A stretch of DNA of 64,000 nucleotides from a virus: positions 1-64,000 of IMG/VR virus record IMGVR_UViG_3300023172_000011. One strand, given 5' to 3'. The notes beneath the pieces are model-generated. The model saw only the letters and a program-made list of their open reading frames with translations. It was not told the origin of the DNA and did not search any database. Numbering within the stretch: the stretch's first letter is position 1; each line of letters starts with the position of its first letter. The position numbers and the translations under genes were made by a program. Below are positions 7,894 through 12,493 of the stretch, piece after piece.

Positions 7894-7965
7894 TACCTTG
7901 TGGTGTAATCGGTAGCACAGCAGATTTTGGTTCTGCTAGTTGGGGTTCAAGTCCCTGCGAGGTAA
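7894..7965 (+). tRNA. tRNA-Gln(UUG)
   Basis: TACCTTG/CGAGGTA acceptor stem; GCAGA-TTTTGGT-TCTGC anticodon arm. Confidence 0.9.
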
Positions 7966-7971
7966 TGTAAT

Positions 7972-8052
7972 GCCGGAGTGGTGAAATGGCAGACACGCTA
8001 GATTTAGGATCTAGTGCCGCAAGGCGTGCAGGTTCAAGTCCTGTCTCCGGTA
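7972..8052 (+). tRNA. tRNA-Leu(UAG)
   Basis: GCCGGAG/CTCCGGT acceptor stem; CTAGA-TTTAGGA-TCTAG anticodon arm; long variable arm. Confidence 0.92.
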
Positions 8053-8053
8053 A

Positions 8054-8125
8054 TCCGAAATAGCTCAATGGTAGAGCAATCGGCTGTTAACCGATGGGTT
8101 ATAGGTTCGAGTCCTATTTTCGGAG
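8054..8125 (+). tRNA. tRNA-Asn(GUU)
   Basis: TCCGAAA/TTTCGGA acceptor stem; ATCGG-CTGTTAA-CCGAT anticodon arm. Confidence 0.92.
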
Positions 8126-8126
8126 C

Positions 8127-8490
8127 TTCCGGTTCGCCGGAATAAACATGTAGACGTTGTTAGTGAAACAACACAGGACGCGAGTTCGATTCTCGCCGCC
8201 TCCACCAGAAGCACACTAGGATGTTGAATACGGTCTATGTGAGGTTCAAATCCTCCTAGATGTAACCACGTACTCAAAGCATCTAGTTGACGGACTACTT
8301 ATGACGGTAAGATAGTGTGTTTCTGACGGGGGCGTAATGGTATCGACTGGTTGCGTAGGTGATGACTGCATGTGCTGGTTTGTCGAAGGGCCAGCTAAAA
8401 AATCGACAGACAATAACTGCAAAACCTAGTTTTGCGTTGGCTGCTTAGGCAGTCACGGGGGGTTGCCCGCCCTTGCTATCCAAACGGGCA
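8127..8490 (+). ncRNA. ssrA: tmRNA, circularly permuted two-piece gene (acceptor piece ~8127-8207, coding piece 8328-~8490)
   Basis: The 3' piece GGAC-GCGAG-TTCGATT-CTCGC-CGCCTCC-ACCA precedes the 5' piece GGGGGCG-TAATGGTATCGAC; G3-U70 pair; pk1 (GCTGG/CCAGC, TGTCGA/TCGACA); resume codon after ATAACT gives tag AKPSFALAA* (8419-8448). Confidence 0.93.
8208..8323 (+). ncRNA. Permuted tRNA-like (YrlA/Y RNA-like topology) element inside the tmRNA intervening sequence
   Basis: 11-bp outer stem 8208-8218/8313-8323; T arm GAGG-TTCAAAT-CCTC; 8-bp stem CTAGATGT/GCATCTAG with AACCA at its 3' side; D-like hairpin CTTA-TGACGG-TAAG. Confidence 0.6.
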
Positions 8491-8518
8491 TTTTTTCCTT
8501 TCACTGGAGATTATAGCT

Positions 8519-9043
8519 ATGGAAGAATATATTAAAATCCAAAAGGAAGCAACTAAGTGGGATAAAATTTTCTTCAGAGAAGCAATTCTTTGGAGTTTTA
8601 ACAGTCATGATAGTCAAACTAAATGTGGATGCGTCCTTGTAAAAGATAAAACTTCATTATCTACAGGATATAATGGATTCATCAGGGATATTGATGATAC
8701 TATACTACCAAGGGTTAGACCTCAAAAATATCCTTTCATGATTCACGCAGAGGCTAATGCTATTTACAATTGTTCAAGACTTGGTAGAAGTACTCTAGGA
8801 GCTACAGCATATATAACAGCAATACCATGTCTTGACTGTCTGCAAATGATATATCAATGCGGAATAAGTGAAATCAAATTCACAGATGCATCAAATCCTA
8901 AAATGGATATCTATTCTGAAAATTATTCGCAGATTTTAAGGCTAATCAAGGATAAAATATCTATAGTCTACATACCTAAAAAGTATGTTTTATTCGTTAG
9001 GGATATGGATGGAGATAAAGATGTTCAGGATCAGCAAAGATAA
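8519..9043 (+). CDS. dCMP deaminase
   Basis: TGYNG, HAEANAI, PCLDC zinc motifs; start moved to ATG 8519 (GGAG RBS) because the longer ORF overlaps tmRNA. Confidence 0.9.
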   Translation: MEEYIKIQKEATKWDKIFFREAILWSFNSHDSQTKCGCVLVKDKTSLSTGYNGFIRDIDDTILPRVRPQKYPFMIHAEANAIYNCSRLGRSTLGATAYITAIPCLDCLQMIYQCGISEIKFTDASNPKMDIYSENYSQILRLIKDKISIVYIPKKYVLFVRDMDGDKDVQDQQR

Positions 9044-9206
9044 GACAAAAGTTCTTGATCATGAGAATAGAGTTGTTGGATGGATTAATAATGAAAGATT
9101 TATTCAATATGGATGCGACCCGCTTTATAGGACTGGTCTAAGTCCTGCGGATCTAGAGAAGATATCAGAGCTTATGCAAAGGAATAACGTGGGAACTTTT
9201 AGATGA
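9021..9206 (+). CDS. Hypothetical protein
   Basis: GGAG RBS before ATG 9021. Confidence 0.55.
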   Translation: MFRISKDKTKVLDHENRVVGWINNERFIQYGCDPLYRTGLSPADLEKISELMQRNNVGTFR

Positions 9207-9697
9207 AAACTCTAATTTTAAATGCCAATGCTCGGCCATTGTCTGTTGTATCAGGCAGAAGGGCCGTAATGTTGGATCTTAATAATTCCAATGTTACGGC
9301 TCTTTCTTATTATATTAACAGTATTACAACGATTAATGGCTCAATGCCAATTCCGGCGGTGATGATATATTCTAAGTACATTGTCATTAATAAAAAAACA
9401 GTTCCTACCAAAAGATCTATTAGACTTAGAGACAACAATAAGTGCGGCTATTGTGGAGTGAATTTATCTCCAGAAACATTTACGATAGATCATATTATTC
9501 CTGTTAGCAAGTTCCCAAATAAGGCAGCGGCAAACACTTGGGAAAATCAAGTATCATGCTGTAGAAAATGCAATACATCTAAGGGCGATAAAACCTTAGA
9601 GCAGGCACGCATGACTTTGCTAGTCAAGCCAAAACCATTTAGCAAAATGATCTTATGCGAATCCGTCCCGCATGAATGGTCCAAGTACATACAATGA
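9203..9697 (+). CDS. HNH endonuclease
   Basis: RDNNKCGYCG...TIDHIIP...WENQVSCCRKCNTSKGDK. Confidence 0.9.
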   Translation: MKTLILNANARPLSVVSGRRAVMLDLNNSNVTALSYYINSITTINGSMPIPAVMIYSKYIVINKKTVPTKRSIRLRDNNKCGYCGVNLSPETFTIDHIIPVSKFPNKAAANTWENQVSCCRKCNTSKGDKTLEQARMTLLVKPKPFSKMILCESVPHEWSKYIQ

Positions 9698-9772: not shown

Positions 9773-9973
9773 ATGAAAAATTTTACACTGGGATTTCTAT
9801 TGTCTGGATGCATTTGTTTAATTAGCTATATTGTCTGGGAAAATCATAGACATGTACCTGTAATTATTAAGCAGGTTCCTGTTCCAGTTGCTGTCCCACT
9901 GCAACAATCCTCACCATTCCCACCAAACTCAAACCTCGCCTTAATTCTGGAGAAAAACAATGATAACATTTGA
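9773..9973 (+). CDS. Small membrane-anchored protein
   Basis: N-terminal TM helix, Pro-rich tail, GGAG RBS. Confidence 0.55.
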   Translation: MKNFTLGFLLSGCICLISYIVWENHRHVPVIIKQVPVPVAVPLQQSSPFPPNSNLALILEKNNDNI

Positions 9974-11213
9974 TTTTGGCAGAAGATCTTTCTTAAAGAT
10001 TGGATCTATAAGTACAGCAATGTCAATAGCTGGATTTACAGACGCAGCCTTTCATCAGGATACAAATAGTAAGTCAGTGATCTGGATATGGCTTGGTGGA
10101 GGCCCAGCACAATTTGAAACATTCCATGCACCAACAGATACAGTTCCTGCCGAATGGCGACCTGTTGATGGATCTAATTATTGTGCATCAACTAACATTA
10201 ATCTTGGTGCCAACTGGACAGAACTTGCTAAACATACAAGTAAGTTGAATGTCGTCAATTCATTTAGTCATGGAGACTCTGCTCATCTACAGGCTACTCA
10301 CTTTATGATGACTGGACATTATAATAAAGAAAGAACACAAACCGCTATATCTAAAATGCCTTCATTTGGATCATTAGTTTCTGCTATTTACGGAGCTAAT
10401 CATCCCGCCAATGGTATGCCATGTTATGTGAAACAAGGCAAAATTGATGGTGAAGATCCAGCATGGCTTGGTGGAGCTTATAAGCCTTTTGATCCATCAG
10501 CAAAGGATAATCTCTCTCCAAGAATTGAGATGGAGAGATTTAATAATAGACGAGAACTTCTAAATAGCATTGACAGTCTTGGTCAAAAAATCAATAGTAG
10601 ATCAGCAAAATCTGTTGGATTTTATAAAGATCAAGCCTATAATGTTATATTAGGATCTGCAAAAGATGCATTTGATCTCAAGCAAGAATCTGATGACACT
10701 AGGAAAATCTATGGTTCAGAAAAAGCTAATGATATTGGCGAACAAATGATTTTAGCCAGAAGATTAGTTGAAAATGGAACCAAGTTTGTTACAATACACT
10801 ATGGCGGATGGGATATGCATAACAATATCTCAGATGGCATTAAAAAGAGAGTACCTCCAATTGATAAAGCAATCTCTGGTCTTTTACAAGATTTGTGGGA
10901 TCGTGGAATTAATGAAGAGGTATTAGTTGTTGTTACTGGAGAATTTGGAAGAACTAAGATCAATGCAACAGCAGGTCGTGACCATTGGCCTTCTATTACT
11001 CCGTTAATGATGGCTGGAGGCAAATACCAATCAGGAAGAACTATTGGCGAAGCCGATAGATCATATGTACCTAAGAGTGATAAGTTTGGACCGTTAGATT
11101 TACAGGCTACAATTTTTGACCACATGTTAATTGATGGAAGGCAGCAGCGATTTGATATGGCTGGTCGTCCAAGATATTTACTTGATGGCGAAGCTAAAAT
11201 CATTTTATCGTAG
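9960..11213 (+). CDS. DUF1501 family protein with Tat signal
   Basis: RRSFLK Tat motif; KSVIWIWLGGGP.QFETF, ARRLVE.G..FV, GWDMH, GEFGRT.KIN...GRDHW. Confidence 0.88.
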   Translation: MITFDFGRRSFLKIGSISTAMSIAGFTDAAFHQDTNSKSVIWIWLGGGPAQFETFHAPTDTVPAEWRPVDGSNYCASTNINLGANWTELAKHTSKLNVVNSFSHGDSAHLQATHFMMTGHYNKERTQTAISKMPSFGSLVSAIYGANHPANGMPCYVKQGKIDGEDPAWLGGAYKPFDPSAKDNLSPRIEMERFNNRRELLNSIDSLGQKINSRSAKSVGFYKDQAYNVILGSAKDAFDLKQESDDTRKIYGSEKANDIGEQMILARRLVENGTKFVTIHYGGWDMHNNISDGIKKRVPPIDKAISGLLQDLWDRGINEEVLVVVTGEFGRTKINATAGRDHWPSITPLMMAGGKYQSGRTIGEADRSYVPKSDKFGPLDLQATIFDHMLIDGRQQRFDMAGRPRYLLDGEAKIILS

Positions 11214-11221
11214 GAGATTTT

Positions 11222-12493
11222 ATGTTTAATGCTCATATTGGAAGACGTAGTTTATTTAAGGCTGGATTACTTAGTTTTATGGCTCCAAAGTTATTTGGGG
11301 ATATTAAAAACTTTGAAAGCGTAGAAGGTCCAGCTAAGAGCGTAATCTTTATTTACCTTCCCGGAGGTATGGCTGCACAGGAGAGTTTTGACCCTAAGCC
11401 ACTAGCACCTGTTGAATATAGAGGCCAAATGGCAAGTATTCAAACTAATGTTGCTGGAACTTTTCTTAATGAGAAGTTAGTTAAGACCGCTGGCGTTGCC
11501 GATAAGCTAACAATCATACGTAGTATGACTCATGGAGAGGCCGCACACGAGCGAGGAACGCATAATGTCTTTACTGGTTATAGACCAAGCCCAGCACTAA
11601 ACTATCCGTCTATAGGGGCTGTGGTGACTCATGAGTTTGGTTCTAGAAATAACCTTCCGGCTTATATCTGCATTCCTAATCTGCCTAATGAATTTGCTGG
11701 AACTGGATATCTTAGCAGTTCTTATGGACCATTTAGCTTAGGCTCTGATCCAGCAAGAGATGACTTTAAGGTTAGAGACTTGGCAAGCGAAATTGGTCAG
11801 GCAAGATTTGCAAGACGACGTAGCACGTTAGATCTTGTAAATAAAAGTTTCATAGAAAAAGCTAAAGATGCAGATAATGTCAAGGCTATGAATACATTTT
11901 ATGATAAAGCCTATGATCTTATCTCTAGCACAGAAGCACAGGAAGCCTTTAAATTAGAAAAAGAATCTCCTGAAGTCAGAGAGAGATATGGTAAGAACAC
12001 TGCTGGAGCACGCATGTTGCTATCACGCAGACTCGTAGAAGCTGGAGCAAGATTTGTCACGATGACTTATGGCGGATGGGATATGCACGATAATATCGCC
12101 AATGGAATTAATAGTCAAATGCCAGCGTTCGATCAGGGTTTTGCTGCCCTAATTTCTGATCTATCAGAAAGAGGATTGCTTGACTCTACTTTAGTTTGTG
12201 TTGTTTCTGAATTTGGTAGAACACCTAAGATTAACAATACATCAGGAAGAGACCATTGGCCGCGAGTATTTAGCTCTGTATTAGCTGGTGGCGGAATCAA
12301 GGGTGGAATTACTTATGGAACATCTGATGCTACAGGATCTGAACCAGATCAAAATCCTGTAGAAATTCCTCATTGGGCAGGCACTATCTATCATCAAATG
12401 GGAATTAATCCAGACAAGGAATTAATGGCTCCGGGTGATAGACCAATTGAGATTGTTGACTTTGCTGAAGTTATTAAAGACATTATTGCTTAG
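11222..12493 (+). CDS. DUF1501 family protein with Tat signal
   Basis: RRSLFK; AKSVIFIYLPGG..AQESFDPKP, RRLVEAGARFV, GWDMH, EFGRTPKIN..GRDHWP. Confidence 0.9.
   Translation: MFNAHIGRRSLFKAGLLSFMAPKLFGDIKNFESVEGPAKSVIFIYLPGGMAAQESFDPKPLAPVEYRGQMASIQTNVAGTFLNEKLVKTAGVADKLTIIRSMTHGEAAHERGTHNVFTGYRPSPALNYPSIGAVVTHEFGSRNNLPAYICIPNLPNEFAGTGYLSSSYGPFSLGSDPARDDFKVRDLASEIGQARFARRRSTLDLVNKSFIEKAKDADNVKAMNTFYDKAYDLISSTEAQEAFKLEKESPEVRERYGKNTAGARMLLSRRLVEAGARFVTMTYGGWDMHDNIANGINSQMPAFDQGFAALISDLSERGLLDSTLVCVVSEFGRTPKINNTSGRDHWPRVFSSVLAGGGIKGGITYGTSDATGSEPDQNPVEIPHWAGTIYHQMGINPDKELMAPGDRPIEIVDFAEVIKDIIA

Follow-up and report, generated by a model that had tools for sequence, protein, structure and literature searches.

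Positions 8208-8327 of the window (the whole 64,000-nt stretch of DNA analysed here) form the intervening sequence (IVS, or spacer) of a phage-borne tmRNA gene. We consider it rather likely that this IVS consists of a conserved processing stem and a lineage-specific insert with no demonstrated role. Its conserved and probably functional part is the closing stem, 8208-8218 / 8313-8323, together with the adjoining UGAC. A first-pass annotation had read the same bases as a tRNA-like molecule in permuted order, nested within the tmRNA gene.

A permuted tmRNA gene in a viral record

The source record is an uncultured virus of 118.6 kb, estimated to be 75% complete. The gene is a circularly permuted two-piece tmRNA of the alpha, alphaproteobacterial type. 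The Rfam model RF04321 (tmRNA_permuted) matches with 87.6 bits (E 2e-15, gathering threshold 47) over 8146-8448, and RF01849 (alpha_tmRNA) with 60.9 bits (gathering threshold 50) over 8127-8453. ARAGORN likewise calls a permuted tmRNA* at 8115-8539, with the tag AKPSFALAA. The IVS fills the exact gap between the encoded CCA and G1 of the coding piece, G8328, confirming the first-pass assignment of 8208-8327 as the tmRNA spacer. We take the IVS class to be that of the Alphaproteobacteria, of the Caulobacter type, with OM43 phage Melnitz as a phage example. The tRNA cluster upstream is probably co-transcribed context of the tmRNA gene (Table 1).

A minus-strand ORF of 70 aa with a TTG start (8065-8277) overlaps tRNA-Asn and the tmRNA. 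A promoter-like site within the spacer (8287-8316, 9/12) is at chance level, 4 such sites being found against 3.0 expected. Blastn of 8100-8540 against 50,697 GenBank phage records gave zero matches, and tblastn with the neighbouring 417-aa DUF1501 protein returned no match.

Table 1. Coordinates of the tmRNA gene, its spacer and the upstream tRNA genes in the window
Feature	Coordinates	Strand	Description and basis
tRNA cluster	7894..8126	+	upstream of the tmRNA gene; ARAGORN, Rfam tRNA 55-74 bits
tRNA-Gln	7894-7965	+	ARAGORN
tRNA-Leu	7971-8053	+	ARAGORN
tRNA-Asn	8054-8126	+	ARAGORN
tmRNA acceptor piece	8146..8207	+	3' tRNA-like half, first in the permuted gene; Rfam, ARAGORN, sequence reading
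T arm of acceptor piece	8180-8196	+	
Acceptor 3' strand	8197-8203	+	CGCCTCC
Discriminator	8204	+	A
Encoded CCA	8205-8207	+	
Intervening sequence (IVS, spacer)	8208..8327	+	120 nt; insertion in the Rfam alignment
Closing stem, 5' strand	8208..8218	+	GAAGCACACTA; pair probabilities 0.88-1.0
'Variable' segment	8219..8240	+	22 nt; GGAUGU 8219-8224 pairs with GCAUCU 8279-8284 in the MFE fold (p 0.65-0.99)
T-arm-like hairpin	8241..8255	+	GAGG-UUCAAAU-CCUC; 4-bp stem, loop fits the tRNA T-loop consensus, p 0.99
Acceptor-like hairpin of the first-pass annotation	8256..8286	+	CUAGAUGU 8256-8263, loop AACCACGUACUCAAA 8264-8278, GCAUCUAG 8279-8286
GG-loop ('D-like') hairpin	8298..8311	+	CUUA-UGACGG-UAAG; p 0.96-0.97
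Closing stem, 3' strand	8313-8323	+	TAGTGTGTTTC
Conserved UGAC	8324-8327	+	directly before the predicted RNase P site 8327/8328
tmRNA coding piece	8328..8496	+	acceptor 5' strand GGGGGCG 8328-8334; G3:U70 with U8201
Tag reading frame	8419-8448	+	AKPSFALAA, stop TAG
GC hairpin, then U run	8465-8489, 8491-8496		read from the sequence, without a terminator-scan call

The closing stem is conserved and covaries across spacers

The 11-bp outer helix described in the first-pass annotation is present, and one of its pairs is a G-U. In the predicted fold of the precursor, the acceptor stem, a 2x2 loop and the closing stem make up one continuous run, with C8206-A8207 and U8324-G8325 flanking the closing stem and the acceptor stem carried on across the 2x2 internal loop.

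Related genes provided a comparison set of 78 locus-strands, which reduced to 49 distinct spacers of the form CCA-N-AAG...YTTC-UGAY-G1, 25-171 nt in length. YTTC-TGAY is common to all 49 of these class-B spacers because the motif served to find most of them. Pairs 2-10 of the closing stem are formed in 424 of 435 cells (97%) across the 49 distinct spacers, compared with only 32-55% in a control in which the partner was slid by 1-2. Several pair types occur at each position (pair 5: CG 29, TA 15, GT 5; pair 7: CG 23, TA 16, GC 4, TG 3), and the stem shows many compensatory changes among these related spacers. The studied IVS shares the frame N-AAG.../...YTT-C with UGAY directly before G1, as does a gene from a Rhizobiaceae MAG (L057).

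The stem surrounds from 3 to about 150 unrelated bases, depending on the spacer; the minimal form (L056, 26 nt) is a bare hairpin. The outer helix is a generic closing stem of this IVS class, conserved with covariation, and not part of a nested tRNA. The idea that it replaces an anticodon stem falls away, since the same stem is conserved class-wide, even around only 3 bases. In the literature searched we found no printed account of closing-stem conservation in phages.

We propose that the closing stem extends the tmRNA acceptor stem coaxially in the precursor. It would keep the two tmRNA halves aligned and expose both of the sites at which the mature pieces are cut free, one just after the CCA (8207/8208) and the other the RNase P cut before G8328. 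We infer both the processing enzymes and the excision in the studied phage.

The loop holds unrelated contents in related spacers

In related phages, the loop of the closing stem behaves like a slot whose contents are unrelated from case to case; it can be empty or contain short hairpins, structured RNAs that are conserved, small ORFs or tRNA pieces. Some of these contents are better conserved than the tmRNA that carries them. One IVS of 171 nt recurs at 99-100% identity in five tmRNA backgrounds, although the mature parts of these genes share only 64-93%, and a 90-nt deletion form of it turns up in a sixth. Three spacers encode a conserved hydrophobic peptide of 38-41 aa, the stop of which is the conserved UGA, and tRNA pieces occur in L241 and L253. 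A search of the relatives' 171-nt, 70-nt, 48-nt and 95-nt spacers with Rfam at E<=1 found no family within any of them.

The interior of the studied spacer (8219-8312, 94 bases) would be an insertion in this loop and is most likely excised together with the IVS. It is non-coding, having no ORF of 25 codons or more.

Predicted folding of the interior

The whole 120-nt spacer has a minimum free energy (MFE) of -36.6 kcal/mol (z = -3.09), a stability reached by 1 of 200 shuffles, which bears out the earlier description of the spacer as structured. Every helix of the first-pass annotation was located where it had been placed, including the D-like GG hairpin, which a single base separates from the 3' strand of the closing stem. 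Ensemble probabilities are 0.88-1.0 for the outer helix and for the T-like and D-like ones. Similar GG-loop hairpins are seen by eye at the same place in four other spacers (L240, L244, L251 and L252).

The element described as a canonical T arm has the hairpin and the T-loop sequence, and its loop is closed by a G-C pair. Its stem is not the canonical one of 5 bp: U8240 and C8256 are unpaired, leaving 4 pairs. Counting both strands, the 118.6-kb record has 17 motifs of this kind (4 bp plus TTCRANY), of which about 10 fall in tRNA genes, the tmRNA or the studied spacer. The mean in shuffled genomes is 6.66, so that about 0.003 are expected per 120 bases. The T-loop hairpin of 8208-8327 is not a product of chance.

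Starting at the base right after the T-like stem, CTAGATGT (8256-8263) is complementary to GCATCTAG (8279-8286) over 8 bp, with one G-U. The complementarity claimed for the two acceptor strands is thus real, but the helix has an ensemble probability of about zero because GCAUCU 8279-8284 prefers GGAUGU 8219-8224. The segment that contains this preferred partner, CTAGGATGT (8216-8224), repeats the first acceptor-like strand imperfectly and in direct orientation. The structure of the first-pass annotation has an energy of -26.7 kcal/mol as drawn and -31.2 kcal/mol in the best fold with its helices enforced, and enforcing the acceptor-like helix costs 5.4 kcal/mol relative to the MFE. The AACCA that was said to follow the acceptor strand is found at 8264-8268, with the CCA itself at 8266-8268 in the loop of the acceptor-like hairpin, but the offset is non-canonical, as two bases and not one separate the helix from the CCA.

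Searches for relatives of the interior

The interior appears from these searches to be an unconserved, lineage-specific singleton. An exact search of viral contigs with a 23-mer from the interior gave 0 matches. End-anchored patterns run on viral, metagenome and genome contigs returned many spacers, none of them with the studied interior, and when the interior was compared by blastn-short with all loci and the entire record it matched only itself. The collection scans needed exact words of the interior, and the absence of homologues may reflect such limited scans.

Chance matches were set aside by eye. In one end-anchored scan these were 6 of 18 rows in coding DNA, along with L044 (contig end), and in another 6 of 7 rows. 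A third pattern scan kept at least nine true loci, the remaining parsed loci being chance matches in coding DNA. As far as the collections reach, the interior is unconserved, an outcome that the first-pass annotation had itself named as speaking against its proposal. With no homologue of the interior, there is no covariation evidence for its helices.

DNA of the phage is found in a salt-marsh habitat. Parts of the studied stretch occur in 20 rows of sequencing runs, and four of these were examined. Across the spacer, the DNA contig of X12 shows no difference from the window and so offers no natural variants to use. In a metatranscriptome (X16), contigs lie on tRNA-Asn to the acceptor piece and on parts of the coding piece, but 8231-8293 is uncovered; as RNA ends are not visible in contigs, this coverage speaks neither for nor against excision or stability. 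In two salt-marsh runs, DNA contigs connect 8216 directly with 8315 and thus lack 98 bases, and since their flanks are only 18-20 nt we regard them as probably relatives with a bare hairpin.

A recent copy of the tmRNA's own 3' end was also considered as the source of the interior and was rejected, as by eye only generic T-arm features are alike. The spacer of one other gene (L247) does look like a duplicate of its tmRNA 3' end.

tRNA-like readings of the insert

Several observations count against an insert without a role. The T-loop hairpin beyond chance, the abutting 8-bp helix, the GG-loop hairpin and the CCA in the loop jointly resemble a tRNA mimic of the YrlA type. T-like hairpins are enriched in other phage spacers, and the studied spacer folds better than its shuffles.

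It is possible, although we think it unlikely, that the insert is a tRNA-elbow mimic carried as a passenger RNA. In such an RNA the T hairpin would sit on the middle helix (the acceptor-like helix) and the GG-loop hairpin on the closing stem, as in YrlA. It would be freed at tmRNA maturation and would work by way of proteins that bind tRNA, serving, for instance, as a sponge or decoy that draws off the host's tRNA-directed nucleases or its modification enzymes. The chance-defying T loop, the 8-bp helix that directly follows the T stem, the GG-loop hairpin one base from the closing stem and an element order equal to that given for YrlA in PMC4201824 all speak for such a molecule.

T-like hairpins were found in 9 further distinct phage tmRNA spacers. 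The scan yielded 16 loci, 11 of them true tmRNA IVSs; the 11-base motif is expected by chance in an estimated 1 spacer in 8,000, and, because the scan was targeted, the enrichment depends on the number of spacers assumed. Three of these spacers, from beta-type phage tmRNA genes (L240, L244 and L251), are one homologous family and share the helix order of T hairpin, middle helix and (by eye) GG-loop hairpin. RNAalifold predicts 18 pairs for them, 5 with double changes, and compensatory changes have kept the T stem and the middle helix. Inserts of this kind may therefore have a selected tRNA-like function.

The studied interior could not be tied to this family. With a covariance model built from its three members (R1), which score 87-106 bits themselves, the best match in the window reached 13.7 bits (E 0.38), at 8173-8260, where the model was out of register and lay on the T arm of the tmRNA itself. 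When the L240 region was compared with phages by blastn, only the tmRNA T arm and acceptor matched. The Infernal comparison suggested by the first-pass annotation, with the Rfam tRNA, YrlA (RF02553), Y_RNA and other tRNA-mimic models on 8190-8345, gave no match at E<=10; the RF02553 model was active, as it made a weak 23-bit match on the tandem tRNAs of another locus (L036). Of the two genes that were to be sought in the full record, TROVE/Ro60 (PF05731) had 0 matches and RtcB was not found in the 118.6 kb. The linkers, 22 and 11 nt, compare with 4-5 and 2 in tRNA. Together with the near-zero probability of the middle helix and an interior without covariation, these results weigh against the mimic. 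The YrlA-like topology claimed earlier can be drawn as an order of T hairpin, middle helix and GG hairpin, with a middle helix of about zero probability in the predicted ensemble.

A wider form of the same idea strikes us as improbable: that two-piece tmRNA spacers of phages repeatedly carry tRNA-elbow mimics of YrlA topology, released at maturation and acting on tRNA-binding host factors, for example as decoys for tRNA-directed defence nucleases, with 8208-8327 as an independent singleton of a polyphyletic class, much as the first-pass annotation had outlined it.

We give very little credence to the nested permuted tRNA of the first-pass annotation, in which RNase P would cut once more, at 8278/8279, and the 3' end would be trimmed back to CCA8268, leaving a two-piece, anticodon-less and possibly aminoacylatable mimic. 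RNase P measures a length of 12 stacked pairs, and the 4-bp T stem and the 8-bp helix would add up to 12. The CCA lies in the loop just 3' of a helix strand, G8279 could be the +1 base, and RNase P cleavage with CCA addition in vivo is described for the YrlA of M. smegmatis (PMC4201824). The geometry is nonetheless not that of a tRNA, with stems of 8 and 4 bp in place of 7 and 5 and two bases before the CCA. There is no anticodon loop, because that position is the open closing stem of the IVS. A CCA in a 15-nt loop is expected by chance about 1 time in 5 (estimate), and in the sole family with the same topology it occurs in 1 of 3 members, as GCCA in L240, being absent from L244 and L251. The acceptor-like helix is thermodynamically disfavoured, and neither RtcB nor Ro60 is encoded in the record. 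ARAGORN on the circularised spacer (-c) called 0 genes at default and -ps settings, while the control tRNA-Asn was found; at -ps80 it returned only a 'tRNA-???', anticodon-less (2-nt anticodon) and in another register. A nested-tRNA function of 8208-8327 is unsupported, and a second RNase P round, aminoacylation and a decoy function of the spacer RNA are pure conjecture.

Hardly to be expected, too, is a switch in which GCAUCUAG (8279-8286) would pair with either 8216-8224 (rod) or 8256-8263 (cloverleaf), tuning processing-site access and maturation timing: its two mutually exclusive partners are direct repeats of one another and the two folds lie 5.4 kcal/mol apart, but nothing is conserved with which to test a switch, such alternatives are common in any 120-nt sequence, and the closing stem is predicted in both folds, so that the processing sites would look the same.

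The reading we prefer is an IVS that joins a conserved processing stem to a lineage-specific insert. The interior most likely descends from a tRNA- or tmRNA-derived sequence; its origin and its fate are what we infer.

Implications

If the insert is indeed no more than a passenger of the IVS, the value of the result is descriptive and lies in setting out how a phage two-piece tmRNA precursor is built. The closing stem and UGAY are conserved and covarying and are therefore a concrete candidate processing signal that is open to mutation. The insert in 8208-8327 adds one more type of content to the spacer cargo slot. The conservation of the 171-nt cassette and the enrichment of T-loop hairpins suggest that stable-RNA precursors serve phages as vehicles by which small passenger RNAs and peptides are expressed or spread. 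If a tRNA mimic were shown to come out of a tmRNA precursor, it would be a new route to a regulatory or decoy RNA.

Comparison with known systems

In PMC4201824, YrlA is described as carrying, inside a terminal stem, a variable element (V), a T stem-loop, an acceptor-like stem-loop and a D stem-loop, in that order; in M. smegmatis, RNase P cleaves this RNA and CCA is added to it in vivo. The spacer has the same element order within its closing stem, insofar as the helices can be drawn, the acceptor-like one at an ensemble probability of about zero. It differs in lacking the CGAA of the GNCGAA motif, in its much longer linkers and in its terminal stem, which is the closing stem of a tmRNA IVS and not a Ro60-binding stem. 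The 118.6-kb record (estimated 75% complete) has no TROVE/Ro60 gene.

Permuted tRNA genes, whose 3' half comes ahead of the 5' half, occur in Cyanidioschyzon merolae, green algae and Thermofilum pendens; RNase P and tRNase Z are the probable enzymes that remove the short intervening sequence joining the acceptor ends (PMC3978253). The likeness to the studied locus is that the 3' half precedes the 5' half with a short intervening sequence between the acceptor ends. Permuted tRNAs are re-ligated at a BHB junction into a full cloverleaf with an anticodon, whereas the spacer has no anticodon arm, BHB or tRNA-model score and the record no ligase gene.

The closest parallel is the IVS of permuted tmRNA genes. 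Marine and aquatic phages commonly carry two-piece tmRNAs (PMC9004378), and the IVS is absent from the mature two-piece tmRNA by definition of the gene form (PMC11915505). The studied sequence lies between an encoded CCA and G1 in the same frame as the Rhizobiaceae gene. It differs in its length of 120 nt, since in most related phage genes that share its mature sequence the spacer measures 12-13 nt and no CCA is encoded. Among the contents of permuted tmRNA IVSs, PMC11915505 reports an intact tRNA-Ala and a repetitive element, and the spacers compared here show the same stem-closed slot with unrelated contents in related genes. The insert of 8208-8327 matches none of these contents, being a partial tRNA look-alike in permuted order and not a whole tRNA. 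To the permuted tmRNA IVS it adds a unique structured insert with a T-loop hairpin.

The spacer and its tmRNA gene

The virus record is linear, 118,642 bases long and an estimated 75% complete, with the window as its first 64 kb. ARAGORN called seven tRNA genes; it also placed a permuted tmRNA gene, whose tag is AKPSFALAA, at 8115-8539. Two Rfam models matched the tmRNA gene, tmRNA_permuted (RF04321; 87.6 bits, E 2e-15, 8146-8448) and alpha_tmRNA (RF01849; 60.9 bits, 8127-8453). Because the acceptor piece ends at 8207 and the coding piece starts at 8328, the intervening sequence (IVS, or spacer) of this two-piece gene corresponds exactly to the 120 bases 8208-8327. Their plus strand holds no open reading frame of at least 25 codons.

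The first-pass annotation had proposed that the spacer is a permuted tRNA-like RNA nested in the tmRNA gene, with a T arm, an acceptor-like helix with CCA, a D-like hairpin, and an outer helix in place of the anticodon stem. All the helices it named are present.

Features of the spacer, its flanks and related spacers
Feature	Coordinates	Remarks
tmRNA acceptor piece, 3' end	last base 8207	...CGCCTCC-A-CCA; sequence reading
tmRNA coding piece, 5' end	from 8328	GGGGGCG; pairs with CGCCTCC, G3:U70 included; sequence reading
Outer helix (closing stem)	8208-8218 / 8313-8323	11 bp, one G-U
T-like hairpin	8241-8255	GAGG-UUCAAAU-CCUC
Acceptor-like helix	8256-8263 / 8279-8286	CUAGAUGU / GCAUCUAG; 8 bp, one G-U
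AACCA	8264-8268	
D-like hairpin	8298-8311	CUUA-UGACGG-UAAG
Spacer of L240 (=L212, L239, L255)	359-453	beta-type phage tmRNA gene
Spacer of L244	359-445	beta-type phage tmRNA gene
Spacer of L251	280-370 (minus strand)	beta-type phage tmRNA gene
Distinct spacers with T-like hairpin		L240=L255, L241~L253, L242, L244, L246, L247, L251, L252, L254; targeted scan

Upstream of the tmRNA gene lies a tRNA-Gln/Leu/Asn cluster, and downstream lie a dCMP deaminase gene, an HNH endonuclease gene (9203-9697, plus strand, about 700 bases 3' of the tmRNA gene) and two DUF1501 genes. The DUF1501 proteins, encoded side by side at 9960-11213 and 11222-12493 (plus strand; 233 and 371 bits), are unusual phage cargo; a tblastn search of 50,697 phage records returned nothing for the first. 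A hairpin, UUCCGG-UUCG-CCGGAA, occupies 8127-8142 (plus strand) between tRNA-Asn and the acceptor piece, and the same motif precedes the tmRNA gene at two related loci (L014 and L016).

The closing stem is conserved across related genes

Scans for exact matches to conserved tmRNA words and to the spacer ends retrieved related genes from viral, metagenome and genome contigs; many rows were chance matches in coding DNA and were removed by eye. The spacers fall into two classes. Class A comprises the closest relatives of the mature RNA, with the same 5'-end 20-mer and nearly the same acceptor piece, and its spacers are mostly 12-13 nt, A/C-rich and without an encoded CCA. The window belongs to class B, in which an encoded CCA is followed by N-AAG-helix ... 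helix-YTT-C-UGAY-G1. Among the matches listed, 78 locus-strands gave 49 distinct class-B spacers of 25-171 nt.

Across these 49 spacers, pairs 2-10 of the closing stem, counted from outside, are standard in 97% of cells (424 of 435); the share drops to 32-55% when the 3' strand is shifted by 1 or 2 positions. Several pair types occur at most positions, including pair 5 (CG 29, TA 15, GT 5), pair 7 (CG 23, TA 16, GC 4, TG 3) and pair 9 (CG 24, TG 13, TA 9). The simplest spacer, L056 (26 nt), is a bare hairpin. What the stem encloses ranges from three bases or small hairpins to tRNA pieces, small ORFs, a 171-nt element and a roughly 60-nt family common to many beta-type phage genes. Because the stem is conserved and covaries whatever it encloses, the outer helix is, as judged by this comparison, a feature of the IVS class and no part of a nested tRNA; its proposed role as an anticodon-stem substitute falls away. 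The same frame occurs in a Rhizobiaceae MAG (L057), so it comes from the alphaproteobacterial gene type. In the predicted precursor fold, the closing stem is joined to the acceptor stem through a 2x2 internal loop, making a single continuous helix.

The explanation we favor, with moderate confidence, is that the spacer is an IVS in which the closing stem and UGAC are the selected part, while the interior (8219-8312) is a lineage-specific insertion in the loop, probably derived from tRNA or tmRNA sequence and with no demonstrated role. The stem and UGAC would probably act as a scaffold, maintaining the pairing between the tmRNA halves and exposing two processing sites to the enzymes we infer: the RNase P site at 8327/8328 and the 3' cut after CCA.

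Spacer contents are diverse and the interior is a singleton

The interior had no blastn match in GenBank phages, and a 23-mer from it had none in viral contigs. It was absent from all other recovered spacers among the matches listed, and a search of all loci and the complete record returned only the interior itself. Within the reach of these collections and exact-word scans, it is thus unconserved in homologues, an outcome that the first-pass annotation had itself named as refuting its proposal.

Twenty run rows held part of the stretch, mostly from salt-marsh DNA. In the four runs examined, the DNA contig over the spacer is identical to the window, and metatranscriptome contigs do not cover the interior. 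Contigs of two DNA runs join 8216 to 8315, omitting 98 bases; with flanks as short as 18-20 nt, these contigs are probably derived from relatives whose spacer is a bare hairpin.

Other spacers carry distinct cargo. Five tmRNA genes (L037, L040, L041, L042 and L046) with mature parts only 64-93% identical share the 171-nt spacer at 99-100% identity; this cassette is more strongly conserved than the functional RNA that flanks it, which suggests recent horizontal spread or very strong selection. It matches no Rfam family, and L050 carries a 90-nt internal-deletion form. A partial GOLLD RNA match (RF02032, 940-1218, minus strand) adjoins the tmRNA gene of L037, a related viral contig, at 85 bits, under the gathering score of 150 and interrupted by the locus end. 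Three spacers of 159-166 nt (L198, L204 and L209) encode a conserved hydrophobic peptide of 38-41 aa, MKNPLV...W...IFF, whose stop is the conserved UGA of UGAY, and AAGGAG in the closing-stem 5' strand can be read as its putative Shine-Dalgarno sequence. By eye, an ATG frame is apparently open to the spacer end in L188/L202/L203.

T-like hairpins recur in other tmRNA spacers

A targeted scan for a T-loop word 5-35 nt from the start of class-B spacers returned 16 loci, of which 11 are real tmRNA spacers (9 distinct) and five are chance coding matches. We estimate that chance would place the 11-base motif in that interval in about 1 of every 8,000 spacers; T-like hairpins therefore appear enriched in phage tmRNA spacers. 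The scan was targeted, and the enrichment depends on an assumed total of spacers. In the untargeted set, the motif occurs in 2 of 49 distinct spacers, the window's and L212/L239.

The L240, L244 and L251 spacers are homologous (79% mean column identity). In the RNAalifold prediction, which has 18 pairs, 5 of them changed on both sides, a T-like hairpin lies within the closing stem and is followed from the next base by a middle helix; CAAGGACAYC and ACACUUGC are conserved loop words. By eye, GG-loop hairpins (CUUAA-AUGG-UUAAG, AUCA-GAUGG-UGAU and GAC-UAGG-GUC) abut the 3' strand of the closing stem. The family itself qualifies as a candidate tRNA-elbow mimic. In L252, too, the first hairpin is T-like and the last has a GG loop.

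The original idea in its broad form, with the window's spacer as a functional tRNA-elbow mimic, draws on this enrichment and on the element order shared with the family. Against it, the family's covariance model misses the window's spacer (13.7 bits, E 0.38, mis-registered, not recognized), and within the family only L240 has CCA after the middle-helix strand. Moreover, a second T-like hairpin in L247 resembles a duplicated bit of the tmRNA acceptor piece and the L241/L253 spacers hold tRNA pieces, which suggests that some of these hairpins originate as recombination debris. We consider this mimic unlikely.

In L241 and L253, by eye, the tmRNA CCA is followed by an apparent tRNA 3' half (T arm, acceptor strand, ACCA) and then a complete tRNA-like gene, which may represent a permuted tRNA or a tRNA operon inside the IVS.

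Folding and tests for tRNA or Y RNA identity

The spacer has a minimum free energy of -36.6 kcal/mol, against -26.2 +/- 3.4 for shuffles (z -3.09; 1 of 200 equally good). Ensemble probabilities are 0.88-1.0 for the outer, T-like and D-like helices and about zero for the acceptor-like helix. GCAUCU (8279-8284) is predicted to pair with GGAUGU (8219-8224), not with 8256-8263; the predicted result is a rod capped by the T-like hairpin. The proposed model scores -26.7 kcal/mol bare and -31.2 for the best fold with its helices enforced; in these calculations the gap counts against it, with nearest-neighbor energies leaving tertiary contacts out of account.

The T arm described as canonical is a T-loop-like hairpin with a stem of four pairs, not five. 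Counting both strands, the record holds 17 copies of the motif (4 pairs + TTCRANY), of which this spacer, the tmRNA and the tRNA genes account for about 10. The mean in block-shuffled genomes is 6.66, hence about 0.003 chance occurrences expected per 120 given bases.

A cmscan of 8190-8345 at E<=10 returned only the tmRNA ends and no tRNA, YrlA, Y RNA or other family; the YrlA model was shown working by its known weak false match on tandem tRNAs in L036. ARAGORN, which detected tRNA-Asn as a control, found no gene in the circularized spacer at default or -ps settings, and at an 80% threshold reported an anticodon-less 'tRNA-???' in a register unlike the proposed one. Neither TROVE/Ro60 nor RtcB, partners the first-pass annotation had suggested seeking, is encoded in the 118,642-base record (estimated 75% complete). 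Nested processing into a CCA-ended two-piece mimic is very improbable: the 8-bp complementarity and the CCA exist, but the helix hardly forms in the ensemble, and the CCA is preceded by two bases where a tRNA has a single discriminator. We give scarcely any credence to a pairing switch.

Comparison with known systems

The permuted tmRNA gene form and its IVS are textbook knowledge, and Keiler et al. reportedly described IVS excision in Caulobacter-type tmRNA genes in 2000. We found no description of a covarying closing stem in phages, or of T-loop modules in tmRNA spacers, in a literature search that covered mostly open-access papers, main text only. Two-piece tmRNAs are described as common in aquatic phages (PMC9004378), and an intact tRNA and a repeat element are reported inside an IVS (PMC11915505). 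The YrlA order of T, acceptor-like stem-loop and D, as given in PMC4201824, is shown both by the model first proposed for the window and by L240/L244/L251. What distinguishes the window's spacer is its insert, a non-coding singleton whose tRNA-like hairpins stand in permuted order.
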